The position numbers were made by a program, and so were the translations under genes. A stretch of 64,000 nt of DNA, from positions 2,137-66,136 of the forward strand of contig JAAZBB010000039.1 in the NCBI GenBank assembly GCA_012514035.1, read 5' to 3'. Below the pieces are notes generated by a model, which made no database searches, had not been told where the DNA came from, and saw only the letters and a program-made list of their open reading frames with translations. Shown here one piece after another: positions 14,286 through 59,830 of this stretch. How positions within the stretch are numbered: position 1 is the stretch's first letter; each line of letters opens with the position of its first letter. The stretch is from Lentisphaerota bacterium. Lineage in GTDB: Bacteria > Verrucomicrobiota > Kiritimatiellia > CAIQIC01 > Lenti-01.

Positions 14286-14571
14286 GGGGCGATTCCTTGC
14301 AGGGGGTGGCAGGATCTCGGACCGCTCCATTAAACTCGAAATCCGACCACGAATCAAGCCGATGCAGCCGGTTCCCTTGTCCGCCTTTTCCTGCGGGCTG
14401 AGGATTGAAGCTGCAACGGCCATACTGAAACACGCGGCACATCCGCACACCCCGTCGCAGAGGCGCCCGGCTGGCCGGCGGCGGGTTTTCCATCTTTACG
14501 GGGCCGGGTAGACGTGGGATTATACCGGCAATTCAGCGCGCCGCCGTGCTGGATGATCGAGGAGTGTATTC

Positions 14572-20143: not shown

Positions 20144-20235
20144 GAATTGGCCCGCGATGATGCCGCAGCCATCCGCGGCTTGCAAGCACCGGGGCACCTG
20201 TGCAAATCTGCACCAGGATCAACAGGAGAGCAGCC

Positions 20236-20994
20236 ATGGGATTGAAGGTGATGGGGTGGGTGGCGATTGCGGCCCTGGCCACGACCGTTCACGCCGAGAC
20301 GGTGCTGGAGCGTGTGTTGGCGTCCTATGACGCCGTGCAGAACGTCAGTTGCGAGATCCGGCGCGATACGCCCCTGCCGGACGGCGGGACGCTCCGCATG
20401 CTCAGCCGCGTGTATTTTCAGCGGCCCGACCGGCTCCATGTCGAAAATTACAGCCCGGTCAAGCGCCGCATCGTGTGCGATGGCGCCGTGTTCCGCAGCT
20501 ACACCGAAGGCGCCTCCCAGGGCTTTTCCCGACCGGTGGAGGAATTGAACGAGGACATGCTGCGCAACCTGCGGATGGTGCCTGGTTCGGCCGCCAACCT
20601 GCTGGAGGTGCTGGCGGGCACCCCCGAGGTGCCCTTGGAGCCGACGGAGGAATTTCCCGTCCGCGCCGGCTACGACAACGGCAAGTCCTTTGCCGTGCTG
20701 TCATTGGATGCCCAAGGGCGTCTCGCCCGGTTCGAAATCTATGGCTCCGCGGCCATGACGGATCTGCAGACCCGCACGGAATTTTCCGCCTTCCAGGAAG
20801 TGGCTCCGGGCGCGTGGATCGCCTGCCGGCAACAGGCCACGATCACCATCCAAGGCATGGAACGCACCGAAACCACCCGCGTGGACAATATCGTTGCCAA
20901 TGGCGAAATTCCGGCCTCGTTATTCGAAGCCGGCCCGTTCTTTGCGGGTGTGGAGTTTGTGGATTCATTCGAAAAAATCGCCAACGGATTATAA
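20236..20994 (+). CDS. LolA-like (outer-membrane lipoprotein carrier fold) periplasmic protein.
   Basis: Signal peptide and a LolA-like N-terminal pattern (VYFQRPDRLHVENY...IVCDGAVFRSY). An AGGAGA Shine-Dalgarno lies upstream. Confidence 0.5.
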   Translation: MGLKVMGWVAIAALATTVHAETVLERVLASYDAVQNVSCEIRRDTPLPDGGTLRMLSRVYFQRPDRLHVENYSPVKRRIVCDGAVFRSYTEGASQGFSRPVEELNEDMLRNLRMVPGSAANLLEVLAGTPEVPLEPTEEFPVRAGYDNGKSFAVLSLDAQGRLARFEIYGSAAMTDLQTRTEFSAFQEVAPGAWIACRQQATITIQGMERTETTRVDNIVANGEIPASLFEAGPFFAGVEFVDSFEKIANGL

Positions 20995-21071
20995 CCACCT
21001 TTTCATTGACTTTTTTGCCGGGAGGCCCGATACTAAACCCCAAAAAAAATAACGCATCAACAGGAGAAAGC

Positions 21072-21371
21072 ATGAAGAAACTCATTGCAGGCTTGATGGT
21101 TGGGCTCATGGTGCTGGCGGTGACGGCACCGGCGGCGGATGCGGCGGCGAAGGGCGCCGGACGGGGCGGTTTCGTGGGCTTCATCGCCGGTTGCTGCTTC
21201 GGGATCCGGTCGGGTTCGGCCTTTAACGACGGCAAGGAAATCCACTTCCGCGAGTGGTGCCGGCTGATCCCCTACGTGAACATCGTATTTGCCATCTGGG
21301 ATGGCGTCGATGGTGCCAAGGGCACGACCACGGCCGACCTGGCTTCCCAGTACGGCGCGACCTACTACTAA
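21072..21371 (+). CDS. Small membrane or exported protein (99 aa), paralog A. It contains a GF(V/I)xGCCFGIRSGxA(F/Y)NDGK motif.
   Basis: ACAGGAGAA Shine-Dalgarno upstream. Signal peptide or transmembrane segment at the N-terminus. It is about 60% identical to the next gene. Confidence 0.5.
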   Translation: MKKLIAGLMVGLMVLAVTAPAADAAAKGAGRGGFVGFIAGCCFGIRSGSAFNDGKEIHFREWCRLIPYVNIVFAIWDGVDGAKGTTTADLASQYGATYY

Positions 21372-21396
21372 ACAATCTGAACAGGAGAAGATCCAC

Positions 21397-21687
21397 ATGA
21401 AGAAAATGGTTGCCGGTCTCTTGGTTGTGCTGTTCGTCCTGATGTCATTCGCCCCCGCGGTTTCCGCTGCCGGCGAACGGGGCGGTGTCCTGGGCTTCGT
21501 TTTTGGCTGCTGCTTCGGCATTCGTTCCGGGGCCGCCTACAACGACGGCAAGGATCTGCACTGGCGCGAATGGGTATTGGTGGTGCCGATCGCCGGCTGG
21601 GTCGTGGCGATCCTGAACGGCCTGGACGGCATGAATGGCTTGACCACGAAAGACATGGCCGCCCAATACGGCGCCAACTTCTACTAA
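21397..21687 (+). CDS. Small membrane or exported protein (96 aa), paralog B of the previous gene.
   Basis: Identical ACAGGAGAA Shine-Dalgarno. It shares the GCCFGIRSG and QYGAxxY blocks with paralog A. Confidence 0.5.
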   Translation: MKKMVAGLLVVLFVLMSFAPAVSAAGERGGVLGFVFGCCFGIRSGAAYNDGKDLHWREWVLVVPIAGWVVAILNGLDGMNGLTTKDMAAQYGANFY

Positions 21688-21692
21688 CCCGC

Positions 21693-22541
21693 ATGTCCGT
21701 CCCGCGGACAGCGGCGCACAAGATTCCGGGCCTGGCGCCCGGAATCTTTTTTTTCGGGCTGTCGCTGGCGGCGGCGGCCGCACCTCTTGACCTTGCCGTG
21801 GATCTGTTCGCGGAAGGCCAGTGGGCCGCGGCGCGCACGGAGGCCCGGCGCGTTCAAACGCATGCCGTCGCGGCCGAAGCCGACCGCGCCCGGCTGCTCG
21901 CGGCGATTTCCGCCTTGCGGCTGAATCCGGGGGACGAATCGGCCCGGGCTGACCTGGCCGCACTCTGGCAGGCTCCCGCGGCCGACCTGGAGACCCGCTG
22001 CATGGCGGCTTATGAGTTCGGCCTGGCCGACTGGGCCGCGGGCGGCGCGCAGGCTCCTGCGGCCCTCGAATTCGCTTTTTTGCAGACCCGCCAGGTGCCG
22101 CTGTTCTGGCGCGCGGGCTGCTCGTTGTATTTCTACTTGAAAGCCGACCGGCGGTTGCGCAAGGAGAAGGCGGCTGTCTGGCAATCGCTGCAGAGCTGCC
22201 GGGATGCCTGGCCGCTGGAGGTGTGGCGGGAATGCCGGCCGCGCCGTCCGGCGGGCCATTCGCTCGGTTCCCGGCCCGGCAAATGGATCGTCCAATTCTA
22301 CCGTGCGCAGATCGCCCCGGCCATCGGCGCCCGTTGCGACCTCGAGCCGAGCTGCTCGGAGTATTTTCAACAGGCCAGCCGCGCGCACGGCCTGCTCGGC
22401 ATTCCCCTCATGGCCGACCGCTTTGTCCGCGAGCCTTCCGTGGTAGCGGCGAAGGAAAAGCCGGTGGAAATGCCTGGCGGCGGCATCCGCTATGCCGATC
22501 CGGTCTCCGACCATGATTTCTGGCTGAAGGGGACGCCATGA
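21693..22541 (+). CDS. Fusion protein. An N-terminal exported domain is joined to a C-terminal YidD (membrane protein insertion efficiency factor) domain.
   Basis: C-terminal CDLEPSCSEYFQQASRAHGLLGIPLMADRFVRE plus GGIRYADPV matches the YidD signature. The N-terminal domain is paralogous to the next gene. Confidence 0.6.
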   Translation: MSVPRTAAHKIPGLAPGIFFFGLSLAAAAAPLDLAVDLFAEGQWAAARTEARRVQTHAVAAEADRARLLAAISALRLNPGDESARADLAALWQAPAADLETRCMAAYEFGLADWAAGGAQAPAALEFAFLQTRQVPLFWRAGCSLYFYLKADRRLRKEKAAVWQSLQSCRDAWPLEVWRECRPRRPAGHSLGSRPGKWIVQFYRAQIAPAIGARCDLEPSCSEYFQQASRAHGLLGIPLMADRFVREPSVVAAKEKPVEMPGGGIRYADPVSDHDFWLKGTP

Positions 22542-22560
22542 AAAAGAGGGCAGAGGTTAG

Positions 22561-22588
22561 AGGTCAGGGTTCAGGGTTCGGGGTTCAG
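22561..22588. repeat. Four tandem copies of the 7-bp unit GGTTCAG, with two variants (AGGTCAG, GGTTCGG), immediately upstream of the palindrome array.
   Basis: Direct reading. Confidence 0.6.
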
Positions 22589-22608
22589 GGGGGGCGGACC
22601 AGAAAAAG

Positions 22609-22712
22609 TTTTCCACACTGTGGAAAAATATTTTCCACACTGTGGAAAAAACACCCCCTATTTTTCCACACAATGGAAAAAATTTTCGGCGATTTTCCAC
22701 ACAATGGAAAAA
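22609..22712. repeat. Array A. Four palindromic 19-20-bp units: TTTTCCACACTGTGGAAAA (x2) and TTTTCCACACAATGGAAAA (x2), spaced 22, 31 and 31 bp apart. Each unit is a pair of DnaA-box-like half-sites (TTWTNCACA).
   Basis: Direct reading. The array is a reverse-complement copy of the one at 59748-59830. Confidence 0.75.
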
Positions 22713-22816
22713 TATTTCGTGAATCATGCGGGCCCGGCTTTTCTGTAGGCCGGGTCGGTGACCCGGCGGTTTTCTGGCCCGGTTGTTGCCGCGCCCGTTG
22801 GGCGCGGGGATTCGGG

Positions 22817-23650
22817 GTGGTGGCACTTTGCGCGGCTTCCGCATGGGGGGAAGGCCCCGCCCGGCTCGCGCTGGATTTGTCCGCCGAGGGGCGGCATGAG
22901 GCCGCGGCGATCGAATTCCGGCGCCTGGCGCTGGCGGATCCCGTCGCCACGAATGCCGCCGGTTGGTTCTGGCTGGCCGCCCACGAGTATGCACAGGAGG
23001 GGGCATGGGAGCAGTCCAACCGGATGCTCGACCGGGCGGAAGATGCTGCGCCGCTGGCGTTGCCCATCCCGGTGGCGTGGCGGCGCGCGGAAAACGCGCT
23101 GGGAGAGCGGGACTGGACCTCGGCCGCTTTCCACTTCGACAGCCTGCGGCTCAAGGCCGATGCCGACGACCTGCGCGAGTTTGCCGCCCGCGGGGCGGCG
23201 GCAGCCCGGCTGCGCGAAAAGAATCTAGCCGATGCGCGCCAGGCGCTGGCGGTTGCGCCCGGCGATGTGGCCGCCGCCCGGCAGGCGCTTGACCGTTATG
23301 CAACCGGACGCGACAAGCGGCCGTGGCTGGGCGGCGTCCTGGGCTTGGTGCCGGGGCTCGGCTATGTCTATTCCGGAGAATACGCCAACGCCGCGCGATC
23401 GCTCATTCTCAACAGCCTCTTCCTGTGGGGCATGGTCGAGACGGCCACCGATGACCAGTGGGGCGTGTTTGCCGTGCTGACCTTCGCGGAATTCACCTGG
23501 TATTCCGGCAGCATCTATGGGGGCATTGACGCCGCCCACCGCTTTAACCAGCGCCGGCTGGACGGAGCGGTCACCCATGTCCGAGGAGAGACCCGCCTGC
23601 TGCCGGATCCGATGCAGATTCCCGTCATCTGGCTGACGTTCGACTATTGA
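22817..23650 (+). CDS. Exported or membrane protein. Its N-domain is paralogous to the YidD-fusion gene and its C-terminal hydrophobic domain is distinct. The start is uncertain.
   Basis: Similarity to the upstream gene begins at GFGVVALCAASAWGEGPARLALDLSAEG. The longer ORF from 22538 would translate through the repeat array, which is implausible. A GTG at 22817 is proposed as the start. Confidence 0.45.
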   Translation: MVALCAASAWGEGPARLALDLSAEGRHEAAAIEFRRLALADPVATNAAGWFWLAAHEYAQEGAWEQSNRMLDRAEDAAPLALPIPVAWRRAENALGERDWTSAAFHFDSLRLKADADDLREFAARGAAAARLREKNLADARQALAVAPGDVAAARQALDRYATGRDKRPWLGGVLGLVPGLGYVYSGEYANAARSLILNSLFLWGMVETATDDQWGVFAVLTFAEFTWYSGSIYGGIDAAHRFNQRRLDGAVTHVRGETRLLPDPMQIPVIWLTFDY

Positions 23651-23883: not shown

Positions 23884-24570
23884 ATGAAGAGGATCGGGTT
23901 GGCGGGGTTGGTGTTCATGGGGTTGGTGCTCACGGCAAGCGCCCAGTACGGGCGGGGATCCCTGGAAGGCGATGAAGGGTTGGGCCGGGCGCCGTTGCCT
24001 AAGCCCAGCGATGACACCTTCTTCGGCGGCGGGACCTGGGGCGTGAAGGCCGGGCTGGGTTGGGCCTTCCTCGACTGGGAACTGGGGGCGGCGGAAGGGT
24101 CGGATAATCAATTCGTGCCGCAGGGCTCCGTGTTCTACAAGGCGACCGACAACCTTGATTTCAACCTCTCGGCGATGTTCGTGTCCGGCGAGGACGAGGA
24201 CGACGAGCTGGGCGACACCGATGCCGACCTCGCGCGGCTGGCGCTGGGCGTGCGCTACTGGTTCGACACGCAGTCGCGGTTCGTGCCGTACCTGGGCGCG
24301 GGCATCGGCTACTACATCGTGGACGGTTCGACGGACAACACCCGCGAAGACGGAGTGGTGGTTCCCGCCAGCGGCATTTCGGTGGATAACTGCCCCGGGG
24401 CGTTTGTGGAGGGCGGCGTCGCGTATCAGATTGCCGACAACTTCTTTGTCACTGCCGAGGCCACCTATGACTTCCTGCTGGGTTCGGCCGACGCCAAGAT
24501 CAACGGGGAAGACGAGGACTTCAAGGTGAGTTCCCTGGCCATCGGGCTGGGGGTGGCCTTCATGTTCTAG
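23884..24570 (+). CDS. Outer-membrane beta-barrel protein (OmpA/OmpW-like small barrel).
   Basis: Signal peptide, alternating amphipathic beta-strands and a C-terminal Phe (VAFMF). It is the first gene of the 13-gene exported-protein operon. Confidence 0.6.
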   Translation: MKRIGLAGLVFMGLVLTASAQYGRGSLEGDEGLGRAPLPKPSDDTFFGGGTWGVKAGLGWAFLDWELGAAEGSDNQFVPQGSVFYKATDNLDFNLSAMFVSGEDEDDELGDTDADLARLALGVRYWFDTQSRFVPYLGAGIGYYIVDGSTDNTREDGVVVPASGISVDNCPGAFVEGGVAYQIADNFFVTAEATYDFLLGSADAKINGEDEDFKVSSLAIGLGVAFMF

Positions 24571-24589
24571 AAAAAGCAGGAGCACCGGC

Positions 24590-25801
24590 ATGAAAAAGAA
24601 AATATTTGTCACGGTGGGATTGGGGGCCCTGCTTTTACTGGGGGCCTGCGTTCTGGCGCCCTTTGGCGGAGCCGAAACCCTCGCACAGGAGGATGAATCC
24701 GCACGCGACCACGTCAAGATCGAGATGCCGGGTCCTGGCGGCACGGAAATCACGGTCGTGGAAGGCACCGAGACCACCGAAGAAGAGGGTTACGTCGAAG
24801 CCACCAAGGTCACGACCAATACCGTCCGGGTGCCGGTCAAGACCGTGACCAAGGTGGTGGAAGTGCCCGTAGGGCTTTCCCAGCCCCACAAGGCGCGCCT
24901 GGCCGTCCTGCCGGCGATCTTCTCGGAGCATTTCCATCCGGTCTTCAAGTTCAGCGAACAACTGGAAATGTCCGGACAGATGGACCTCAAGATGGTCTTC
25001 ACCCGTGAGCAGGAATCGCGCATGGAGGCGCCGAGCTTCACGCTCTCGCTGAACGAGGCCTTCGTCAAGTCGCGCAAGTTCGACGTGCTGGAACGGGGCC
25101 GCCTGGCCGAAACGCTGCAGGAGATTGATTTCGGCGAGAGCGACTACGCGGATCCCTCCAAAGTCGTGCCGATGGGGCTGGCCCAGAACGCGGAATACGT
25201 GGTGCTGCCGGAAATCGAGGTCATTCATCTGGTGACGGAACTGAAGGAAATTCCCTACGTGGACACCGTGAAGCCCATCCTGAAGGGCAAGATGATTGCC
25301 CGCCTGCGCGTGGTGGACACCGCCACCACGAAGGTAGCCGCCGCCTGCCGCGAAGAGGTGGCGGTCGAACGGAAGCTCAAGGCCAACAATCCGTTCATCC
25401 AGTCGGAAGGCATGAACCTGATCATGGACTTATACGAGACCGCCAGCCTGCGGCTGCTGCACCGCACGCTGGAGGCCATCTATCCGGTCAAGCTCATGAA
25501 GGTGGAGGAGGGGCGGGCGTTCCTCAACCGGGGCGAGGGGGCCATTGCGGTGGGCGATGAATTCGAGATCTATACGCTGGGCCAGGAACTGGTGGACCCG
25601 GACACCAACGAGTCATTGGGCTCCAGCGAGACCCGCGTGGCCCTGCTGCGCGTGTCCCGCGTGGCGCCCAAGTTCGCCGAGGCCGAGATTGTCGAAGGGG
25701 CGGAAGCCATGACGGGCGATGTGCGGGCGTTCGTCTGCCGCGAATCCGCGCAATCCATCGCGGCCAAGACGACGGTTTCGCCCCGCTCGATGAACTGGTA
25801 G
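24590..25801 (+). CDS. Lipoprotein with a CsgG/LpoB-fold central domain.
   Basis: Lipobox LLGAC. The central block (FVKSRKFDVLERGRLAETLQEIDFGE...GLAQNAEYVVLPEI...ARLRVVDTATT) matches the CsgG/LpoB/TolB-N-like pattern. Confidence 0.55.
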   Translation: MKKKIFVTVGLGALLLLGACVLAPFGGAETLAQEDESARDHVKIEMPGPGGTEITVVEGTETTEEEGYVEATKVTTNTVRVPVKTVTKVVEVPVGLSQPHKARLAVLPAIFSEHFHPVFKFSEQLEMSGQMDLKMVFTREQESRMEAPSFTLSLNEAFVKSRKFDVLERGRLAETLQEIDFGESDYADPSKVVPMGLAQNAEYVVLPEIEVIHLVTELKEIPYVDTVKPILKGKMIARLRVVDTATTKVAAACREEVAVERKLKANNPFIQSEGMNLIMDLYETASLRLLHRTLEAIYPVKLMKVEEGRAFLNRGEGAIAVGDEFEIYTLGQELVDPDTNESLGSSETRVALLRVSRVAPKFAEAEIVEGAEAMTGDVRAFVCRESAQSIAAKTTVSPRSMNW

Positions 25802-25820
25802 CCGGAACGAGGAGAACAAG

Positions 25821-26240
25821 ATGAACATGCGCATGGTGTTGTTGGCGGCGGCCCTGGCGGGCGCCGTCCTGGCGGGGGGCTGCATTTCCTCGGCGCCCCA
25901 GGAGGTGGAATTCGACGACGGGATCTATACCGTCAAGTCGCACTCCCTGACGTTGCGGCAGCATGTCCGGCTGACCCGCCGGACGGTGGACTTCAACAAA
26001 AACGGCTTCCTGCAGGCGCAGATCGAGGCCGTCAACCTGGGCCGCAAGGATGTCCAGTTCCAATACCGGTTCCGCTGGCTGAACGAGCAGAAGATGCTCA
26101 TCCCTGCAGCGACGGCGATCTGGAAGCCGGTTTCCGTGGGGGCCCGTTCGACGGAGTACTTCACCTCGACGGCGCCGACGACCGACGCCCGGGACTTCTT
26201 CATGGAAGTCCGGTTCGTGCACGATTCCACCCGCTGGTAA
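25821..26240 (+). CDS. YcfL-like (DUF1425) small lipoprotein.
   Basis: Lipobox LAGGC. VQFQYRFRWLNEQKM aligns with E. coli YcfL (VHVHYRFYWYDAKG). Confidence 0.55.
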   Translation: MNMRMVLLAAALAGAVLAGGCISSAPQEVEFDDGIYTVKSHSLTLRQHVRLTRRTVDFNKNGFLQAQIEAVNLGRKDVQFQYRFRWLNEQKMLIPAATAIWKPVSVGARSTEYFTSTAPTTDARDFFMEVRFVHDSTRW

Positions 26241-26250
26241 GGAGAAGCCG

Positions 26251-26865
26251 ATGAAACAGCTACCCATGGGTTTGATTGCGGTTCTGTGCGTGCTGGCGCT
26301 GGCGGGATGCGTGACTCCCCCGCGCGGAGATTATGTTCCCACCAGCGAGCCGGGCATCTCCTCGACCGCCCCCCGGCCGCATGACGTGCGGCTGGCCGTG
26401 ACGGAGATCGTGGACTCGATGTTCAACGAGTGGGATTTTGCCTCGCAGGCGGCCGGCAAGATGCCGTACATCGCGTTTTCGGGGATCGAAAATCAAACCC
26501 CGTACAACTGGAACCAAGATGAAATCGTTGGCTGGATCGAGGAGTCCGTCGTGCGCACCGGGAAGGCGACCTTCTCGAACGCGACGGATCCGAACCGGCG
26601 CGGCGGTCGCTCGGGCCAGTTGTATCGGCAGATCGACTTCCAGGATCCGGACAACGAATACGTGGACCAGTCGACGGCCGTGAAGAAGGGCGGGATTCAA
26701 GGCGCGGACTACGAGCTCTTCGGGCGCATCTACACGTATGAGGAGCTGCGCTCCGGACGGATCACGGAGGCCAACTACGTGATCGAAATGACCCTGTCCA
26801 GCCTGCGGACGGGCGGGACGGTGTGGAAGAAGATGGTTCCGATCCGCAAGAACGTGCGGCGCTGA
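26251..26865 (+). CDS. LpoB-like lipoprotein (fold of the penicillin-binding-protein activator LpoB).
   Basis: Lipobox LAGC, a disordered Pro-rich linker, and a C-domain that aligns with E. coli LpoB (ENQTPYNW...GKATFSNAT; GADYELFGRIYTYEE...EMTLSSLRTGGTVWKK). Confidence 0.6.
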   Translation: MKQLPMGLIAVLCVLALAGCVTPPRGDYVPTSEPGISSTAPRPHDVRLAVTEIVDSMFNEWDFASQAAGKMPYIAFSGIENQTPYNWNQDEIVGWIEESVVRTGKATFSNATDPNRRGGRSGQLYRQIDFQDPDNEYVDQSTAVKKGGIQGADYELFGRIYTYEELRSGRITEANYVIEMTLSSLRTGGTVWKKMVPIRKNVRR

Positions 26866-26877
26866 TCCGGCGGATTC

Positions 26878-27537
26878 ATGTCGCCGGCCCAACGGCTTGT
26901 TCGCAACACCACTGGCACATGCCGGAAGGGCGGCGCCTTTCTTTGCCTGGGGCGCGGGCTGCTGGTCTGGGGGGGCGTGCTGCTGGCGGCCGGCTGCGCT
27001 TCGACCACGCTGAACCGGCCGCGCGATTTCGGCGCGGTGGTGGGGCGGGAGCCGGCATCCATCGCGCTGGGCGAGATCCGCGACAACGTCGCCTGCGACG
27101 ACGAAGCCTTCTATCTCCAGCGCTATCTGGAAGGCCAGCGGGTGTTCTACGATTGCGTGCTGGCGGACCGGTCGGATGTCCGGGCCTATCACGGGGCGGA
27201 CCTGATCGTCTCCGGCAAGATCGCCCCCGCCATCCAGACCCGGCGCCTGGGGTGGGGCGTCTTCGCGTCCTGGATCACGCTGGGCGGATACTACCTGCTC
27301 GGCGGGCCCACCCGGGAACAGGAAGTCCGGATCGCCTATGACTTCGAAGTGGAGTACGCCGATTCGGGCCAATCCCGAAACTACCGGTTCGAAGATGTGC
27401 GGCAGGCGACCTTCGGGCTCTACGGGCCGGGCATCAATCTGGATCAAAAGCCCGGGGTTTATATACCCGGCTGGGAACGGCTGCTCTACGAAATCTGCAA
27501 GGAAACGAAAGTCCAGCGGGCGGGGCGGGCACCATGA
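26878..27537 (+). CDS. Hypothetical lipoprotein.
   Basis: Lipobox LAAGC. The stop overlaps the next start (ATGA). Confidence 0.45.
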   Translation: MSPAQRLVRNTTGTCRKGGAFLCLGRGLLVWGGVLLAAGCASTTLNRPRDFGAVVGREPASIALGEIRDNVACDDEAFYLQRYLEGQRVFYDCVLADRSDVRAYHGADLIVSGKIAPAIQTRRLGWGVFASWITLGGYYLLGGPTREQEVRIAYDFEVEYADSGQSRNYRFEDVRQATFGLYGPGINLDQKPGVYIPGWERLLYEICKETKVQRAGRAP

Positions 27538-28859
27538 ACCGGGCTGTCCGGCACATCCTGCGGGTTCTGATCCTTCCCGGCCTGGCGCTGGGTTTTTCCG
27601 CCGGCTGCACCTCCCTGCCGGCCTCGGCCCGGCGCGATGCCTTGTACAACCAGCAACAATATCCGGAAATCCGCGAACTGGCGGTGGACGATCTCGCCAT
27701 CCTGGGTCAATACGACCGGGCGGGTTGTGTTGCGGGCACGGTGACGGCCGGGGGGCAGGTCTTTGATTCGCAATATTACGACATGGCCGAGGAGGTCCGC
27801 AGCCTGACGCCCCAGGCCTACTTCGACATGGCGCGCGTGTCGCTGGACATGGGACGTTACCTCGATGCCATCCGCGCCGCCCAGAACGCCATCGAATCGG
27901 GCGCCATGTTCCTCGGGGATGATGAATGGGTGTTCCAGCGGATGATGAGCCTGCGGGAGAACCACAACATCCTCTACAAAGCCTACCTGTATTGCGGGGA
28001 TCTCGACAAGGCGGCCGTCCACCATCGGCAATACCTGTTGATGAACGAGCTGGTGAACAGCCAGGCTTTCAAGAAAGTCATGGCCAATTCCCTGCGCATC
28101 CGCATGACTTCGATGCGGCTGCGGTCGGACTATCAGGCCCGGCGGGCCGGCGCCAACCGGAACCAGGTTCTGATTGCCGCTGCAACCGTGGCCGCCGCCG
28201 CCGCCGCGAGCCAGAACAACTCGTCGTTCAAACCCGCACAAGCCGCCCAACTGGCGCAAATCGGCGTGATGGCCGTGGCCCTGCTGGAGGAATACAAGCA
28301 GGCCTTGAAATTGGAGCACAACCTCGATTTGGCCAAGCTGATGCGTGAGGCGGCCGACCTCAACCGTCTGCCCCCGCCGACGGCGGAAGACCTGCGCCGC
28401 GCCAAGATGGCGTCCGACCTTTATCTTCTGGCGCGGGTTTCCGATCCCGGCAGCGCGCTGGACCAGGCCGAATTTGACGATCTCAAGCGGCTGGGAGCGG
28501 GTACGAGCGACCTGGTGACGTTGTCCATTGACGACAAGGGGCGCGTTCATGTGTCCGGCAACCTGGCCAAGCTGGTGGAGCTCTCGCGCAAGATCGACGA
28601 GGCGCCGCTGCGGCTGCCGCCGCCCCCCGAGGAAGGCGTGGACGCCTATCTCGACACCTATTTGACACCGGGACTCTACCGCATGGCCGGATTGCAGATG
28701 TCCACGGGCGAAATGCAGTTCTTCGACCGGCTCGTGCGCCGGGGCGGGGAGGAATTCGTGATCGACCCCGCGCAGGCCGAGGGCCAGATGGCCCTCCAGG
28801 GCCTCCACAAGATGATGCAGAAGACAACGGAATTCGAATCCTGGATCGCCTCGCTGTGA
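27534..28859 (+). CDS. Hypothetical lipoprotein of 441 aa with TPR-like helical regions.
   Basis: Lipobox FSAGC. Translationally coupled on both sides. Confidence 0.5.
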   Translation: MNRAVRHILRVLILPGLALGFSAGCTSLPASARRDALYNQQQYPEIRELAVDDLAILGQYDRAGCVAGTVTAGGQVFDSQYYDMAEEVRSLTPQAYFDMARVSLDMGRYLDAIRAAQNAIESGAMFLGDDEWVFQRMMSLRENHNILYKAYLYCGDLDKAAVHHRQYLLMNELVNSQAFKKVMANSLRIRMTSMRLRSDYQARRAGANRNQVLIAAATVAAAAAASQNNSSFKPAQAAQLAQIGVMAVALLEEYKQALKLEHNLDLAKLMREAADLNRLPPPTAEDLRRAKMASDLYLLARVSDPGSALDQAEFDDLKRLGAGTSDLVTLSIDDKGRVHVSGNLAKLVELSRKIDEAPLRLPPPPEEGVDAYLDTYLTPGLYRMAGLQMSTGEMQFFDRLVRRGGEEFVIDPAQAEGQMALQGLHKMMQKTTEFESWIASL

Positions 28860-29479
28860 AAACCAGACGGGACAACCAGACGCGGGCCGTGCAACCGGTG
28901 CAGACCGACCGTTGGCGGCGTGCCGCCCGGACGCTGGCGGCTCTGGTGCTGGGGTGGATCTGCGGCTGCGCCCATACCCAGCCGCTGGTGGAGCCGGCCA
29001 GGTTCCCGGATACTCCCAAGAACTACCGGGTCGGCATCGCCGGCCTCTTTGACGTGAATCATTTCGATTATGCCCCGGTCATGGTGGACGAAGTGCGGCG
29101 GCACCGGGTCTTCACGGGCGTGGAGCTGACCCCGGATCTCGCGGCCCCCGATTGCGACTATGTCATCCGCGGGCATTTCGGTTTTTACCAGGTCGAGACC
29201 AAGAATTCCTTCCACTTCACGTCGATCTATTTCTTCGGCCTGCCCCTGCTGACGGGGTTGCCCAATACGAACCACGACGGGGGCATCGACATCAATTTCG
29301 AAATCTACCACCGCGGCACGCTGCTGAAGACCTACGGCTACCGGGATGTGTTCCGGGATCAGCGGAGCTACCTGACCGTTTGGGATTCCACATCGCTGGA
29401 CCTCGAATTGCGCCGGATGGTCCGTCTGCTGCTCCGGGACGTCTGGAAGGATTTCTTCGGCCACAAGGGGGCGGCATGA
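28856..29479 (+). CDS. Hypothetical lipoprotein.
   Basis: Lipobox WICGC. GTG start that overlaps the upstream stop (GTGA). Confidence 0.45.
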   Translation: MKTRRDNQTRAVQPVQTDRWRRAARTLAALVLGWICGCAHTQPLVEPARFPDTPKNYRVGIAGLFDVNHFDYAPVMVDEVRRHRVFTGVELTPDLAAPDCDYVIRGHFGFYQVETKNSFHFTSIYFFGLPLLTGLPNTNHDGGIDINFEIYHRGTLLKTYGYRDVFRDQRSYLTVWDSTSLDLELRRMVRLLLRDVWKDFFGHKGAA

Positions 29480-30075
29480 TTTTCCGGCTGGCCGCCATCC
29501 TGATGCTTGTGCTGGCCGCAGGTTGCGCGACGAACCTGCAAAAAGGCGACAAAATGCTGGCGATGGGCCGCTATGCGGACGCCCGCCGGTTCTACCAGAC
29601 GGAACTGGACCTGCAGCGCGAAGCGGCTGAACTGCCCCGCTGGACCGGCCAGGAGTACCAGTATCAATTCAACGCCCGCGATGCCGCGCAGGCCATCCTG
29701 GGCGTGGGCCGTAGCTTCGAAAAACAGGATCAGCCGGGTCCGGCCCTCTATCACTATTCCTATTTCACCCAGTTTGCGCTGCGGCACGGGCTGGATGCCG
29801 GCCGGGAAATCAAGGCGATCGAACAATGGATCCGGGAATCCGGCCGCCCGCCCCCGAAAACGGAATCGGACGAGGTGGGGGTGCAGGCGCTGACGGAATC
29901 CAGGAAGCCGGCGGTGCGTTCGGCGCCGGTCGTGGCGCCCGCGCGGAAAGCCGGCAAGCCGACGGCCGCAAGACCGCCAGCCGCCCCGCGCGCGGCCTCC
30001 GTTCCGGCGGATGCACAGAAACCGGCAACGGCAACGGAAACAGACGGGAATGAATCAGATGTCATCTTTTGGTAA
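29476..30075 (+). CDS. Hypothetical lipoprotein with a Pro/Ala-rich C-terminal tail.
   Basis: Lipobox LAAGC. ATGA overlap with the upstream gene. Confidence 0.45.
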   Translation: MIFRLAAILMLVLAAGCATNLQKGDKMLAMGRYADARRFYQTELDLQREAAELPRWTGQEYQYQFNARDAAQAILGVGRSFEKQDQPGPALYHYSYFTQFALRHGLDAGREIKAIEQWIRESGRPPPKTESDEVGVQALTESRKPAVRSAPVVAPARKAGKPTAARPPAAPRAASVPADAQKPATATETDGNESDVIFW

Positions 30076-30913
30076 AGACGGGACACTGCTGCTGCTGGTG
30101 ATCGCCTTGTGCGGGTGCGCGACGCCCCGCGCCTCGGTGCAGCCGGGACTGGATTGCCAGGAACGCGGTGAATATCAAAAGGCTTACGAGTATTTCCAGA
30201 ACCTGGCCCGCCAGCATCCGCGCCAGCTCGAGTTGCAGACCTATGTGGACACGGCCCGCGGCCTGGCGTTCCGGCAGGCGGCCGGGCAGGCCCAGAAGGC
30301 CCTGCAGCGGGGCGATCTGGAGGGCTTCCTGCAGGGGATGAAGCAGGCCAATGCCATCCAACCCGGTGAAAAAGTGCAAGCGGTCATCCAACTGGTGGAG
30401 GCGGCGCGCCTGAAGGGCAATACGGATGCCGAAATCCGCGAGGAACTGTCCCGATCCATGCGCGCCGGCGAACGGCAGAGCCTGCAGCAGGCGCTGCAGG
30501 AGACCGCGGAAATCATCGGCCGGCAGATGCTCGATGGTCGCATCGGCAGTCCCATGGCGGTGCTGAACTTCACCCTCGAAGGTGCTGCCGCCCGGGAATC
30601 CGCCGCCGCTTATTTCGAGAATGCCCTGTCCGAGGCGCTGCTCGGCAACCGCATTGCGATCGTCGAACGGAAAAGAATGGGCGAGGTGATGAAGGAGATT
30701 GCCCTGGCGGGGACGGGTCTGGGGGAGTCCGGCCAGATGGTGCAGGCCGGCCAGCTGACCGGGGCGCTGTCCGTCGCCGCCGGCAACGTTTACCTGTCTG
30801 AATCGGGCGGGAAATACCAGGTCCGGGTGATTGACGTCGAAACGGGGCAGGTCGTCTGGCAGGAGTCACGCGATTTCATGCCTGGAAAGGACATGCTATG
30901 GCTGGGCAGATGA
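30050..30913 (+). CDS. Lipoprotein with a C-terminal CsgG/LpoB-fold domain.
   Basis: Lipobox LCGC. SPMAVLNFT...IAIVERKRMGEVMKEIALAGTGL...GALSVAAGNVYL...QVRVIDVETGQVVW matches the CsgG/LpoB/FlgO-type signature. Confidence 0.55.
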   Translation: MNQMSSFGKDGTLLLLVIALCGCATPRASVQPGLDCQERGEYQKAYEYFQNLARQHPRQLELQTYVDTARGLAFRQAAGQAQKALQRGDLEGFLQGMKQANAIQPGEKVQAVIQLVEAARLKGNTDAEIREELSRSMRAGERQSLQQALQETAEIIGRQMLDGRIGSPMAVLNFTLEGAAARESAAAYFENALSEALLGNRIAIVERKRMGEVMKEIALAGTGLGESGQMVQAGQLTGALSVAAGNVYLSESGGKYQVRVIDVETGQVVWQESRDFMPGKDMLWLGR

Positions 30914-31818
30914 ATAAGTTGTCACGACTTTGCGGGTTCCGGCCCGCCGTATTCCGGGCGGCGGCCTCTCTGGCCCTGGCGCTGGCCGCTGCCGCGGGTG
31001 CCGTTGAACCGCCGGCCTGGTGGAACAATCCCAATCCCGGAACGGCCGAACTGATTTATGAAAGAGGATCCGCAAGCGGATGCCGAACAGAACAGGAAGC
31101 GTGGCACAGGGCATATGACGCCGGATTGGCAATGATCCGGAAGCGAATCACCGATGATACCAATCTCTGGTCCCGGCTCCATCTGGTCGGGACGGACTTT
31201 GCCTTTGACAAGGTGGATCAGGATGCCCTCGGCCGTTGGCATGCCTGGGCGCTGGTTTCCTATCCCAGATCACAATTCGAAACGGCTTTGGCCCGGGCGC
31301 AGGCGGCGGCGGATAAAGGTGCCGAACGTACCCCGATCTATGTGGCTCCGGTTTCATTCGGTCCGGACTCGGAGGAACAGTTTCCCGAGGTTGTGGCGAA
31401 ATACAAGGCCCTGGGCTATGGAAATGCCATTTGGCAGACGGTGGAGGATCTGCTGTATGACCACGGATACGAAATCGTGACCGCTCCCGCGTCCCAAACC
31501 AAAAGCATGCTGGAGCAGATTCTCGGCCAGTTCTCCGCAGATACCGGCGGCCGCGACATCAAACTTCCGGAACTGCTGCTGCTTTGCAACATGAACTTCT
31601 TTGAGGTGAAGACCGAACGCCTTTCCCTGGGAACCCTGGCGCGGAATCAGGAGTATCATGCCGAACTGCTTCTGGAGTTGTACGAGGTCACGGCCCCGCA
31701 CACCAACGTGAAGATTCCCGCCAAAGGCGAGGCCCGGGACAAGGATTTGCTTGCCGCGATTCAGCAGGCGGCGAAGCAGGCCGTGGAGAAACTAGTGGAG
31801 CGCGTTCGAACCAAATGA
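30910..31818 (+). CDS. Secreted protein with an N-terminal EPPAWWNNP motif (LPP20/FlgP-like start).
   Basis: Signal peptide. Paralogous N-terminus to the gene at 33727. ATGA overlap with the previous gene. Confidence 0.45.
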   Translation: MNKLSRLCGFRPAVFRAAASLALALAAAAGAVEPPAWWNNPNPGTAELIYERGSASGCRTEQEAWHRAYDAGLAMIRKRITDDTNLWSRLHLVGTDFAFDKVDQDALGRWHAWALVSYPRSQFETALARAQAAADKGAERTPIYVAPVSFGPDSEEQFPEVVAKYKALGYGNAIWQTVEDLLYDHGYEIVTAPASQTKSMLEQILGQFSADTGGRDIKLPELLLLCNMNFFEVKTERLSLGTLARNQEYHAELLLELYEVTAPHTNVKIPAKGEARDKDLLAAIQQAAKQAVEKLVERVRTK

Positions 31819-32558
31819 ACACATTACGGACAAGCCGGACTCGAGCCGGCATGGCTGGCATCCTGGCGCTTTTCGCGTGCGGATGCGGCGGAATGCAGCA
31901 GCCTCGCCTGGCGGAGCAACTATCCCCGGCCCGGACGCCGGGGGCTCCAGCGGAGAGCATGCCCGTCGTGGTGGGCACTGTCACGGCCCATGTTGAACAA
32001 CCGGCGGATCTGCAGGACGCTGTCTGCCGCTATCTCCGCGACCAGACGGCCGCGGCCATCGCTCGCCATGACGCGTTTGTCCTGGTGCAGACAAACGCGC
32101 CGACGGACTTGCTGTCCGGGTTTGGCGTTGTCACAGCCTCGGCGACGGAGTCGGCCGTTTCCCCGGTGGCCGCCTTTGACGTCGAGGTGCTCCGGATCGA
32201 AGAGAAACTCGGAGCCACGGTCAAGGTCGGGCTGGCCTCCAAACAGCAGAAGCAGGCCGTATGCGAGGTCAAGATCATCATGCGCAGCCTGACCGGGGAC
32301 AGGAATCTGGAAAGCCGTCAAATCGGCAAAGCCGCGAAAGGGGCATGGGGAATCATCGCCGCAGTGGATCGGGACGCCATGAAAGGCGGGGCAGGGGCCT
32401 GGGATATGGACGGCAGCATGATCGGCCTGGCCTGTGCCGACGCCGTGCAAGCCGGGATCAAAAGTATAGAGAAACAAATCCGCCTGCGGTCCATAAAACA
32501 TGGGCAGGGAGTTGAACAGCGGTTGCTAAAGCCGCGCACCGTGATACCAAACAGATAA
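31815..32558 (+). CDS. Hypothetical lipoprotein.
   Basis: Lipobox LFACGC. ATGA overlap with the previous gene. Confidence 0.45.
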   Translation: MNTLRTSRTRAGMAGILALFACGCGGMQQPRLAEQLSPARTPGAPAESMPVVVGTVTAHVEQPADLQDAVCRYLRDQTAAAIARHDAFVLVQTNAPTDLLSGFGVVTASATESAVSPVAAFDVEVLRIEEKLGATVKVGLASKQQKQAVCEVKIIMRSLTGDRNLESRQIGKAAKGAWGIIAAVDRDAMKGGAGAWDMDGSMIGLACADAVQAGIKSIEKQIRLRSIKHGQGVEQRLLKPRTVIPNR

Positions 32559-32576
32559 AACAAGGAGTATGAGATT

Positions 32577-33611
32577 ATGCAGAGAAAAACAAAGGCACAG
32601 TGGACACTCGGGATTGCCATTGGAGTATTCAGTCTTGTTTCCATGGGATGGGCCGCGCCCATTGGTTATGTGGATCCCGATGGATATGAATGTGTCGCCC
32701 CCTGTCCTTATGCGGATCATACACAATGTCCAGAGCCTGCTGAGGACTGGCGCTACGTTGGACGAACGAGCGAGACAAGTACCACGGCTGCAGGAGGTGG
32801 GCAACCGGCGGCCAGTTCAAGCATTGCCGTCAACCAAGTGATCCGCAAGAATATTCTGGTTACAGCCCAGCCAGCGGCCAAGCCGCGGAAACAGGCTCCG
32901 GCGGCGCAACCCGCAGCGGCCCCGGAGGCGGAGACCAAACCGGCCCCGTTCTACGAACAGATGCCGGGGATGGGACGGCTGAGTTCCGGTTCAGCGGATA
33001 TGTTTTACAACAAATGGGAAGTGGGTGAAAGCGACGGTTCCACCATCGGGTTCAATCCTTCGATCACGTGGGGAGAGGAAGCGGAATTGACCTTGACAGC
33101 CCCCCTGCATCTGATTCTTCCTGACGAAGGCGATAACATTTTCGCGGTGGGACTGGACGGGGCATACAAACGGCCGCTGACCGGAAAACTGGATAAATTT
33201 GCCGCCGGCGTGCACGCCTACGGGATGGGATATTTCGGCGGGGATGATACGGCCAGCAACTTTGGCGGTGGTCCGTTTCTGTCTTGGACCTATCGGATCG
33301 ATCCCAAGTGGCTGGCGTCGGCGGGCGGTTTGCTGGAGATCACCAAGCCGGATGAAGGGGATACGTTCGTGGAAATCGTACCGGCCGTGAATCTGGGCTA
33401 CAACGTTTCCGACGACCTGGCCTTGAACGCCTATGTCATCTATTACAAGAATCTGGACAGCGACGTGGACGATGATGCCTATGCCGACCTCGGCCTCGAT
33501 GTCCAATGGATCAAAGGCGGCTGGGCGCTGGCAGGTGGCATCAAGACATCGGCCGGGCTGGACAATGTGGATTCCACCGAAATCCATTTGGGCTCCAGTT
33601 GGATCTTTTAA
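32577..33611 (+). CDS. Outer-membrane beta-barrel protein, the second barrel of the operon.
   Basis: Signal peptide, a Gly/aromatic-rich beta-strand pattern and a C-terminal SSWIF. Confidence 0.5.
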   Translation: MQRKTKAQWTLGIAIGVFSLVSMGWAAPIGYVDPDGYECVAPCPYADHTQCPEPAEDWRYVGRTSETSTTAAGGGQPAASSSIAVNQVIRKNILVTAQPAAKPRKQAPAAQPAAAPEAETKPAPFYEQMPGMGRLSSGSADMFYNKWEVGESDGSTIGFNPSITWGEEAELTLTAPLHLILPDEGDNIFAVGLDGAYKRPLTGKLDKFAAGVHAYGMGYFGGDDTASNFGGGPFLSWTYRIDPKWLASAGGLLEITKPDEGDTFVEIVPAVNLGYNVSDDLALNAYVIYYKNLDSDVDDDAYADLGLDVQWIKGGWALAGGIKTSAGLDNVDSTEIHLGSSWIF

Positions 33612-33726
33612 GGCCGGTCTGGCTTGCGGATTCCGGGCATGCGGTTGATCTCCCGGGGATGAGGCCCCGGGAGATGTGGAGGTGTTGACCAACCCGGTGG
33701 GATGTGAAGCCGCCCAAGGAAGACAG

Positions 33727-34896
33727 ATGATGGACTCTACGATCCGGAATGCCACCGGGAAATGGCTGATTCTGGCCGTGGCCCTTTTCCTGCGATGGGC
33801 GGGAGGGGCCGCGGCCGAACCGCCGGGCTGGTGGAGCAATCCCCGCCGGCATGACGAGGAACATTTGTATTTCAAGGCCAAGGGGGAGAGCGCGGTGTCC
33901 GAGCAGGCGGCGCGCATGGACGCGCTGGAAGGGGTGAAGCGGCTGGTGGAGGAATACCTCGAGGCATCGGGGCCGGTCTCGGCCGGCACGAAGCTGCATG
34001 GCGTCGAAGTCTATGCCGAAACCGCCGAACGAGAGCCCGGGGGGAAGTGGGCGGTCTATATGCTGGGCCGCTATCCCGTGGCGGAATACGAGAAGATCCG
34101 GGGGCGGATCGAATCCGCCGAAGCACTGCGGGAGAATTGGGCCCTGGTCCAGTCGGAACTGGCCCGCAACGAATATTCCAAGGCCGAAGCGCGCCTCAAG
34201 GCGATCATTCGCAGCTATGACCAGTCGCTGTCCCCCGGATTTGCATTGGAAGGCGTGAAACTGGCTTTGGCGGGCCTGTACCGCAAGCTGGATCCTCCGG
34301 CCATACTGGAAGCGCGGAAGTGGATTCAAGATGTGCGGCACACCACGCCCGAGCCCGGTTGGCGCCGACAGGCGGAGGACATGGAACGAGCGTTGCCCGC
34401 AATTTCCCTGCGCGATGCCTTCGGCCCCCGCAAGGTGGGGCTGTTTTGCGTGATCCGCAATGCGGAACCCGTTCGGGTTGCGCCGGAGCTGATGACCGAA
34501 GCGGTCGCGCGGCTGGCCCGCGATGGCGTGGAGGCGGTCCGCCTGGAGCCTGCGGATTTGGCCGCCGCCGCGGCGTTATTCGAAGGGGGCGGTGCCGTAC
34601 CTCTGCTGGCCGCCGCCCGGGCGGTCGGGGCGGATGCCGTCCTGGCCATTCTGGTGGCGATCGATCCCGCCAAAACGGGAAAAACGGAGGTGCATTTCGA
34701 CGTGCCAACGCCCGTTCTGGATGCCACGACCTTTTATCAGGTTATCCGCGCGTCGGATGGGAAGGTGCTCTGTTCGGACAAGACCCAGGGGCTGTCCGGT
34801 TCCGGGATCGGCAAACTCCTCAGCCCGGTTTTCGCCCACCGCAACCATTTGCCCAAACATGCGGCAGCCATCGCCGAGGCCTGGTCCGGGCCTTGA
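33727..34896 (+). CDS. Secreted protein with an N-terminal EPPGWWSNP motif, paralogous to the gene at 30910. It is the last gene of the operon.
   Basis: Signal peptide plus the shared motif. A hairpin follows the gene. Confidence 0.45.
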   Translation: MMDSTIRNATGKWLILAVALFLRWAGGAAAEPPGWWSNPRRHDEEHLYFKAKGESAVSEQAARMDALEGVKRLVEEYLEASGPVSAGTKLHGVEVYAETAEREPGGKWAVYMLGRYPVAEYEKIRGRIESAEALRENWALVQSELARNEYSKAEARLKAIIRSYDQSLSPGFALEGVKLALAGLYRKLDPPAILEARKWIQDVRHTTPEPGWRRQAEDMERALPAISLRDAFGPRKVGLFCVIRNAEPVRVAPELMTEAVARLARDGVEAVRLEPADLAAAAALFEGGGAVPLLAAARAVGADAVLAILVAIDPAKTGKTEVHFDVPTPVLDATTFYQVIRASDGKVLCSDKTQGLSGSGIGKLLSPVFAHRNHLPKHAAAIAEAWSGP

Positions 34897-59747: not shown

Positions 59748-59830
59748 ATTTTTCCATTGTGTGGAAAAACGGCGAAAACTTTTTCCATTGTGTGGAAAAA
59801 AAGGCCGATTTTTTCCACAGTGTGGAAAAC
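59748..59830. repeat. Array B. Three palindromic units: TTTTTCCATTGTGTGGAAAAA (x2) and TTTTCCACAGTGTGGAAAA, spaced 31 and 30 bp apart. It is the reverse complement of array A, and the spacers are conserved as well.
   Basis: Direct reading. It lies in the divergent intergenic region between mtnA (minus strand) and ddl (plus strand). Confidence 0.75.

Follow-up and report, generated by a model that had tools for sequence, protein, structure and literature searches.

The outer-membrane lipoprotein LpoB activates PBP1b in Escherichia coli, and in strain K-12 the lpoB gene directly follows ycfL in the locus hinT-ycfL-lpoB-thiK-nagZ. No functional study of YcfL or its family, DUF1425, was found in a literature search. 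Members of the same two families are encoded in the same order, about 10 nt apart and both as lipoproteins, by the genes g3 and g4 of a 13-gene cluster in a Lentisphaerota bacterium that belongs to the Kiritimatiellia (assembly GCA_012514035.1, contig JAAZBB010000039.1). This cluster is located at positions 23884-34896 of the window, which is the whole analysed stretch of 64,000 nucleotides, and its genes were named g1 to g13 in the order of the open reading frames (ORFs) on the + strand (Table 1). The original prediction, which was made from the letters of the stretch, overlooked that g3 belongs to the DUF1425/YcfL family and g4 to the LpoB family, although this ycfL-lpoB pair is the strongest functional lead. 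In contrast to its position in E. coli, the pair found in the Planctomycetes-Verrucomicrobia-Chlamydiae (PVC) superphylum sits between a pair consisting of a β-barrel and an FlgT-like protein on one side and further lipoproteins on the other.

Comparison with related loci indicates that the cluster very probably has a modular anatomy, with an old core g1-g4 that is usually accompanied by a g13-like gene, a lineage-restricted module g5-g9 located near core-type genes, and a variable trio g10-g12. Regarding its function, the evidence amounts to an even chance that it is an expanded cluster of the ycfL-lpoB/Cj0089-91/lpp20 type, providing an outer-membrane-anchored periplasmic scaffold for envelope and peptidoglycan maintenance.

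Comparison with known systems

Small lipoprotein operons that include an LpoB homologue have been described for Campylobacter and Helicobacter. The lipoprotein operon of Campylobacter jejuni consists of Cj0089, encoding a tetratricopeptide repeat (TPR) lipoprotein, Cj0090, and the LpoB homologue Cj0091; in Helicobacter, the Cj0089 homologue HP0018 often adjoins the LpoB homologue HP1457, and both Cj0089-91 and HP0018/HP1457 have been proposed to serve in the maintenance of the envelope or the peptidoglycan (PMC11394524). By its published description, the C. jejuni operon resembles the cluster as an operon of envelope lipoproteins only, with an LpoB homologue among them. A triad similar to Cj0089-91, composed of a CsgG/FlgT_M-like protein, a TPR lipoprotein of about 460-510 aa and a DUF1425 lipoprotein, was found in a metagenome-assembled genome (MAG) of the Moraxellaceae (locus L017) and in a MAG of the Victivallales. 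The PVC cluster differs in the addition of a barrel, an FlgT-like protein and many extra lipoproteins, and no similarity between its g6 product and the TPR lipoproteins of L017 and L018 could be detected.

In Helicobacter pylori, HP1454, Lpp20 (HP1456) and HP1457 share one operon, in which Lpp20 has the FlgP/FlgT fold and domain 1 of HP1454 resembles Lpp20 (PMC11756786). The structural model of g13 has its best match in HP1454, and the lpp20 operon also contains an LpoB homologue. However, this similarity is found at the fold level only, and the domain order of g13, with TPR and PelC-like domains, is unlike that of HP1454.

The H ring located under the outer membrane of Vibrio is built of 26 FlgT and 26 FlgP subunits, with the C-terminal tail of FlgP docking into a groove of FlgT (bioRxiv 10.64898/2025.12.04.692373). 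As in FlgT and the FlgT-like domains of TsaP, an FlgT_M-type α/β domain is predicted to be followed in g2 by an FlgT_C-type β domain, and FlgT is a non-lipidated periplasmic protein, as are most g2 orthologues. In contrast to FlgT, g2 has no match to FlgT_N, has no flagellar context (flgO/flgP, motX/motY and LP-ring genes are absent from the flanks and from related loci), and carries a family-specific acidic N-terminal hairpin as well as an invariant C-terminal tryptophan.

Outer-membrane lipoproteins similar to PqiC, LptE, PelC, and CsgG have one α/β core and act as rings, plugs or pores (PMC13631591). An α/β fold of this CsgG/LpoB/PelC/LptE type is common to g2, g4, g9, and the C-terminal domain of g13. 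In contrast to CsgG itself, neither g2 nor g9 has a full-length match above the cut-off, and the lipid anchor of CsgG has a conserved counterpart in g9 but not in g2.

Gene order in related genomes

The g2 family alignment was used for a synteny scan of one genome per species, by which 16 loci were recovered. The genes g1-g2-g3-g4 adjoin one another in unchanged order in seven PVC genomes belonging to the Verrucomicrobiota, Kiritimatiellia and Victivallales (L004-L010) and in L021, and g2 is 57-91% identical across these eight PVC core loci. A g13-like gene is located 0-5 kb from the core in six of the seven genomes (L004-L006 and L008-L010). The module g5-g9 is present in none of these seven loci. 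In L005, g4 is directly followed by g10-g11-g12-g13, and in the other PVC loci the slot after g4 is occupied by CsgG/LpoB/DUF3280-type lipoproteins, a PEGA-domain protein, a papain-like peptidase or an AhpC-like lipoprotein. In L007, three lipoprotein genes at 13989-16013, about 2 kb downstream of the core, encode N-terminal sequences that resemble the CsgG/DUF4810/DUF799 (GNA1162-type) triad.

In the close relative L021, whose g6 is 71% identical, the order g1-g10 is the same as in the window and g11-g12 are replaced. In a further relative, with a g6 of 47% identity, a module of the g5-g9 type is located upstream of a core-like set; the upstream half of this locus consists of a g13-like gene, g5, g6, g7, a gene for 141 aa and a CsgG-family gene, and the downstream half of a gene for 198 aa, a g2-like CsgG-family gene, a DUF1425 gene and a gene for 200 aa. 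On the short contigs of L022 and L023, the neighbours of the module are CsgG/DUF3280-like lipoproteins and a g13-like gene, with g6-g7-g8-g9 being directly followed by g13 in L023. In Lentisphaera, a solitary g2-like gene has housekeeping-type neighbours.

The order of all 13 genes, which the original prediction had regarded as that of a single operon, is not conserved in these relatives: only g1-g4 is kept, usually with a g13-like gene nearby, and the remaining orthologues are in part scattered. Because g5-g9 change position or are missing and g10-g12 vary, the cluster is best described as a composite of modules and not as a fixed 13-part machine.

Core proteins g1 to g4

The product of g1 matches the Pfam family OMP_b-brl (8e-13; 49.3 bits at a cut-off of 28.7) and OmpW (6.7e-9), has a signal-peptidase-I signal and ends with ...AFMF, all of which identify it as an outer-membrane β-barrel. 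An NCBIfam hint to PorG was at chance level and was not used. Two barrels with a C-terminal phenylalanine had been predicted, encoded at 23884 and 32577; profile support was obtained for g1, while for g12, the second of them, it is the strand pattern and the terminal phenylalanine that point to a barrel.

The most conserved protein of the cluster is g2. Its mature N-terminus (24650-24760, residues ~33-58) consists of a conserved acidic β-hairpin motif, (E/D)DDExxRDH(V/I)KIEKxTxGGAKVTVVEG, which is followed by a linker of variable, low-complexity sequence (about 40-60 aa) and by two predicted domains, an α/β domain of the CsgG/FlgT_M type and a β domain of the FlgT_C/TsaP type. The Pfam profile CsgG (PF03783) reaches 20.3 bits at a cut-off of 20.8 and is aligned at positions 44-96 of 210 only; precomputed PF03783 matches are present on g2 orthologues. 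The match to FlgT_C is weak (15.7 bits at a cut-off of 27). A distant g2 homologue in L017 matches FlgT_M at 6e-4, and a search of the PDB with the g2 family profile retrieved the FlgT-like domains of the secretin-associated TsaP (6ve2) at 1e-5. The AlphaFold2 model of g2 has an overall pLDDT (predicted local distance difference test) score of 59, with residues 200-395 being well modelled. Foldseek matched the model to the cryo-EM structure of the LPHT ring (8z5n, 1.9e-11) and to Vibrio FlgT (3w1e, 3.2e-11) over about 215 columns, and more weakly to CsgG (~1e-3), followed by GNA1162, LptE, and PelC. Since the FlgT matches are far ahead of CsgG and the CsgG profile match is partial and below threshold, g2 is, as judged from its model, probably a periplasmic protein with two domains that resembles FlgT, and not a pore of the CsgG type.

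The g3 product matches DUF1425 (PF07233) at 9.5e-12 with 45.1 bits at a cut-off of 28.3, and is weakly similar to the DUF1425 structure 3o0l (0.014). Profile, conserved lipobox and the position beside an lpoB-family gene all identify it as a YcfL/DUF1425 protein. Its neighbour g4 has a conserved lipobox and an LpoB domain (PF13036, 4.3e-16, 59.6 bits at a cut-off of 22.3), and a sequence search of the PDB with g4 gave no match. The linker between lipidated cysteine and domain comprises about 25 residues in g4, compared with roughly 50 in E. coli LpoB.

Both g2 and g3 end with a conserved tryptophan. In g2 (25796-25798) it is invariant throughout the family, including the distant Lentisphaera homologues (...PGW), and in g3 (26235-26237) throughout the PVC family (...S/TRW; L004-L021), whereas it is missing from E. 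coli YcfL and from the DUF1425 proteins of L017 and L018. The tryptophan of g2 and g3 may be a docking motif, and the acidic N-terminal hairpin of g2 could be a docking element as well.

g13 and its paralogue g10

The AlphaFold2 model of g13 (pLDDT 83) is most similar to H. pylori HP1454 of the LPP20 family (4kzs, 1.8e-5), followed by GNA1162, FlgT, PelC, HpaA, CT253, CsgG, and LpoB. Its N-terminal domain starts with the motif EPPGWW, the middle domain is of the TPR type, and the C-terminal domain has the α/β fold of PelC, GNA1162 and LpoB. With sequence profiles, Pfam LPP20 (PF02169) was matched by one of 11 family members (0.031), and the profile match to 4kzs was 0.54; a link to LPP20 at the sequence level is only suggestive. 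A pair of paralogues with an EPPxWW motif had been noticed in the sequence alone, and indeed g10 and g13 share about 115 N-terminal residues (BLASTP 7.6e-9; hhalign 97%). Of the relatives, L005 has g10, L021 a truncated copy and L023 none.

Lineage-restricted module g5-g9 and variable genes g11 and g12

The products of g5 and g7 are paralogues (hhalign of the families 87%, E 4e-6, 146 columns), and their family showed no relation to other families of the cluster, to Pfam families or to PDB entries beyond this pair. For g5, no match was found in Pfam or NCBIfam, and its orthologues are confined to L020-L022. For g7, there were 11 matching clusters among 1.84 billion representatives and no meaningful PDB match; an NCBIfam hint to LIC12231 was at chance level and was not used. 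The g6 family is similarly small, with nine relatives among 5.8 billion proteins and two short loci only in a scan of metagenomes with its alignment, and had no match in Pfam and no profile match in the PDB. A TPR lipoprotein of the Cj0089/HP0018 type was considered for g6 and rejected, as hhalign gave 1-7% with the TPR lipoproteins of L017 and L018, whose genes are flanked there by the CsgG-like and the DUF1425 gene, and the PDB profile search was empty. For g8, matches to TPR proteins and to PorE were at chance level only, and the NCBIfam hint to PorE was not used.

The original prediction had assigned a domain of the CsgG/LpoB type to the products encoded at 24590 (g2) and 30050 (g9), which agrees with profiles, hhalign and structural matches. 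By hhalign, g9 and g2 are aligned with 86% (E 5e-6), and the domain of the window copy of g9, when scanned alone, matches LpoB at 7e-4 and CsgG at 1e-3. The window copy of g9 reaches 13.8-18.7 bits with Pfam CsgG, below the cut-off of 20.8; the orthologue in L023 (55% identical) exceeds it with 33.2 bits, over profile positions 39-106 only.

An orthologue of g11 was found in L005 only, and neither this nor the window copy matched a family in Pfam or profile searches. A hidden CsgG/LpoB fold, suspected from the sequence pattern of g11, was rejected for this protein, with hhalign values of at most 4.4% against all family alignments and an empty Pfam result. The product of g12 has a cysteine-rich, low-complexity N-terminal part, about ten amphipathic strands and the C-terminus ...SSWIF, as seen in the alignment with its L005 orthologue. 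It is, from these features of its sequence, a probable outer-membrane β-barrel; the Pfam match to DUF481 (E 0.062) was at chance level and no profile match was obtained. L021 and L023 lack g12.

Export signals and lipoboxes

Export signals and lipoboxes were called heuristically from hydrophobicity and motifs and not with SignalP or LipoP. In agreement with the claim that every product has a signal peptide, all 13 have a hydrophobic stretch within the first ~40 residues, with the best 10-residue Kyte-Doolittle mean at 2.2-3.4. All nine lipoboxes that had been predicted are present in the window, and those of g3, g4, g5, g6, g7, g8, g9, and g11 are kept in orthologue alignments: the lipobox LAGC of g4 is conserved in orthologues, that of g6 in all eight aligned members, that of g8 in L021 and L023, and that of g11 in the L005 orthologue; the lipobox of g9 is likewise conserved. 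The ninth, LGAC in g2, is not: no cysteine is aligned with it in any of 28 orthologues, all of which have a signal-peptidase-I-type A-x-A before the acidic EDDE motif. Because the lipobox is not conserved, g2 is probably soluble in the periplasm. The window copy of g13 has a signal-peptidase-I-type signal and the protein is a lipoprotein in several relatives. Altogether, these data support that the products of g1-g13 are exported envelope proteins.

Gene layout

As predicted, the 13 ORFs are co-directional, all being located on the + strand between 23884 and 34896. At the three codon positions, g1-g13 have a consistent GC pattern, with 0.63-0.90 at the third position (GC3) and 0.39-0.51 at the second (GC2), and long antisense ORFs have the inverse pattern. 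On independent metagenome contigs the identical 13 genes were called with 100% identity, and the g2 protein sequence was found in 199 blocks of the collection searched; the organism is common in anaerobic digesters. Since codon-position GC and independent assemblies agree, g1-g13 are real genes.

Table 1. Features of the cluster, with positions given for the window
Feature	Position	Strand	Length (aa)	Description
g1	23884..24570	+	228	Small OmpW/OmpA-type outer-membrane β-barrel; opens the conserved core
g2	24590..25801	+	403	Predicted FlgT-like two-domain periplasmic protein
g3	25821..26240	+	139	DUF1425/YcfL-family lipoprotein, C-terminal ...RW
g4	26251..26865	+	204	LpoB-family lipoprotein
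g5	26878..27537	+	219	Orphan lipoprotein, paralogue of g7
g6	27534..28859	+	441	Orphan lipoprotein, invariant lipobox, weak TPR hints
g7	28856..29479	+	207	Orphan lipoprotein, paralogue of g5, conserved G-C-x-H-T N-terminus
g8	29476..30075	+	199	Lipoprotein, helical N-terminal part, Pro/Ala-rich tail
g9	30050..30913	+	287	Lipoprotein, C-terminal CsgG/LpoB-type domain at residues ~186-275
g10	30910..31818	+	302	Exported, signal-peptidase-I signal, N-terminal EPPAWW domain; variable region
g11	31815..32558	+	247	Lipoprotein without recognisable fold; variable region
g12	32577..33611	+	344	Probable outer-membrane β-barrel; variable region
hairpin	33648..33675	+		Perfect 11-bp GC-rich stem in the g12-g13 gap
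g13	33727..34896	+	389	Three-domain protein, LPP20/HP1454-like + TPR + PelC/GNA1162/LpoB-type; conserved partner of the core

The genes are closely spaced. All five of the 4-nt ATGA/GTGA overlaps that had been reported (27534, 28856, 29476, 30910, and 31815) are present, and gaps of 10-19 nt separate g1/g2, g2/g3, g3/g4, g4/g5, and g11/g12. The claim that such overlaps or gaps of at most 19 bp are found throughout thus holds for most junctions but fails at two. The overlap of g8 and g9 is 26 nt long, or 17 nt if g9 starts at the ATG at 30059. Between g12 and g13 there is a gap of 115 nt, or of 64 nt if g13 starts at the GTG at 33676, in which a hairpin without a U-tract is located. This hairpin may be an internal terminator, an attenuator, a processing site or an RNA-stability element. 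A scan for promoters and terminators yielded no σ70-like promoter and no convincing terminator, with PVC promoter types lying outside its coverage. GC3 amounts to 0.82-0.90 in g1-g7 and to 0.63-0.78 in g8-g13 (29476-34896), with the lowest values in g12 (0.63) and g10 (0.67), which fits with a mixed history, a later acquisition or a lower expression of the variable part.

Proposed function and alternative explanations

If the cluster provides an outer-membrane-anchored scaffold, its products would assemble as an oligomer on the periplasmic face of the outer membrane, held there by the lipoproteins and perhaps also by the g1 barrel. The ring- or lattice-forming element would be g2, comparable to FlgT in the Vibrio H ring and to the FlgT-like domains of TsaP around secretins. 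The products of g3, g4, and g13 would bind to g2 and extend towards the peptidoglycan, and in this lineage the g5-g9 lipoproteins would bind to g2 as well. Such a scaffold could position or regulate peptidoglycan synthases or hydrolases and couple the outer membrane to the wall, in parallel to the role of E. coli LpoB and to the proposals for Cj0089-91 and HP0018/HP1457.

Several points weigh against this proposal. The scaffold and its function in envelope maintenance are the weakest part of the overall explanation, as folds and gene neighbourhood are their only basis. The cluster has no gene for a peptidoglycan enzyme. Pairwise identity with the E. coli YcfL-LpoB pair is only about 20%, and the score of g4 with the NCBIfam model TIGR02722 is 78.5 bits, short of the 110.55 required of an equivalog. 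The AlphaFold2 model of g2 is poor over residues 20-197. Five of the 13 products (g5, g6, g7, g8, and g11) add nothing to the argument, being devoid of a recognisable fold or family. Furthermore, the hairpin, the gap of 115 nt and the fall of GC3 after g7 would be compatible with two or more transcription units and a mixed origin.

Part of these data would also be explained if the cluster were an island of several independent small systems, i.e., core, g5-g9 and accessory genes, which are packed together by shared Sec/Lol export and expression conditions. Synteny across relatives is restricted to g1-g4, the place of g5-g9 with respect to the core varies, g10-g12 are missing or exchanged for other genes in L021 and L023, and the families of g5, g6, g7, g8, and g11 are tiny or orphan; the drop in GC3 after g7 and the hairpin with the 115-nt gap before g13 are in line with such an origin, too. 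Nevertheless, this explanation is regarded as unlikely, as in both contexts that are long enough the module g5-g9 is located beside a core-like set of CsgG-family and DUF1425 genes, in two different gene orders, as its neighbours in L022 and L023 are again CsgG/DUF3280-like lipoproteins and a g13-like gene, and as in other genomes the variable slots again contain members of this fold superfamily. Recurring neighbours and a recurring fold superfamily argue for a functional and not an accidental linkage of the modules.

An outer-membrane-anchored scaffold or a secretion-like assembly had been put forward in the original prediction. The first of these agrees with a set of envelope proteins having a ring- or plug-type fold, whereas the reading as a CsgG channel is weakened by the profile of g2, its match to FlgT and its lost anchor, and a secretion channel of the CsgG type is not supported. 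A single 13-component machine for secretion through the outer membrane, or a channel, built on CsgG-like nonameric pores of g2 and g9 is therefore the least probable of the explanations weighed here. It could draw on the Pfam CsgG similarity of g2 and g9, the PF03783 matches on g2 orthologues, the presence of CsgG among the structural matches and the two barrel proteins. However, the sub-threshold CsgG match of g2 covers only positions 44-96 of 210, its top structural match FlgT is not a pore, its lipid anchor is not conserved, and the 13-gene set is not conserved either; moreover, genes resembling csgE, csgF, csgA or csgB, and other candidates for a substrate gene, were not detected in the cluster or its flanks. 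That the cluster has no curli or flagellar context was confirmed for about 10 kb on either side, and partner genes of curli, Pel, mammalian cell entry (MCE) or LptD systems are absent from the cluster. The same lack of context makes it very improbable that the proteins form an accessory ring for a machine encoded elsewhere, be it a flagellar H ring or basal disk or a TsaP-like collar of a type IV pilus or type II secretin. Such a ring would suit FlgT and the LPHT ring as the leading structural matches of g2, the sequence profile match of g2 to TsaP and the resemblance of the N-terminal domain of g13 and g10 to Lpp20/HP1454 with its FlgP fold, but no flagellar, pilus or secretin gene is located within 10 kb at any locus examined, FlgT_N is missing from g2, the partners in the cluster belong to the YcfL/LpoB families and not to MotX/Y or FlgO/P, and the g2 homologues of Lentisphaera have housekeeping-type neighbours.

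A bolder variant of the scaffold, which we consider improbable, is a ring or disk that PVC bacteria would build beneath the outer membrane, independently of a flagellum, from the parts known from the flagellar H ring and basal disk of proteobacteria. It would comprise the FlgT-like g2, g10 and g13 as proteins of the Lpp20/FlgP fold and g4, g9 and g13 as lipoproteins of the LpoB/PelC fold, with the g1 barrel as a holder and the invariant tryptophan tails of g2 and g3 as docking pegs, comparable to the FlgP tail in FlgT. If this were true, a stand-alone envelope organelle could be the ancestral housekeeping use of this set of folds, which would later have been recruited to motors and secretins.

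To our knowledge, ycfL-lpoB, Cj0089-91 and lpp20-type operons are widespread, and a mechanism is known for E. coli LpoB alone. Neither the building blocks nor a pairing of the ycfL-lpoB type is new; a PVC-wide core of barrel, FlgT-like protein, YcfL and LpoB with an expansion of orphan lipoproteins was not found in the literature searched. The YcfL-LpoB pair is conserved out to the PVC superphylum, where it is hard-wired to an FlgT-like protein and a small barrel. The cluster supplies a concrete set of partners for YcfL and for LpoB homologues outside the enterobacteria, and represents a case of ring-building folds of the FlgT/FlgP type outside any motor. Its practical value is limited at present, since most of the hosts have not been cultured and no fold can be assigned to five of the 13 products.

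Flanking DNA

Upstream of the cluster, the region 19367-23650 encodes a DUF3108 protein (- strand), a LolA-like protein, two small paralogous membrane proteins, a YidD fusion and a protein of 325 aa. These neighbours stay near the g1-g4 core in L005, L006, L008, and L010, with order and orientation shuffled. Their retention despite this shuffling hints at a larger envelope-biogenesis neighbourhood around the core.

A palindromic motif of 20 nt, TTTTCCACAC(TG|AA)TGGAAAAA, for which shuffled sequences gave an expectation of 0 matches, occurs twice as an array in the window. Four tandem copies are located at 22609-22712 (+), upstream of the gene for the 325-aa membrane protein (22673-23650), and three copies at 59749-59829 (-), between a divergent mtnA-like gene and ddl. 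As suggested by reverse-strand tblastn matches, L005 and L006 have the array at the corresponding place, too. The array may bind a regulator or act as a promoter element.

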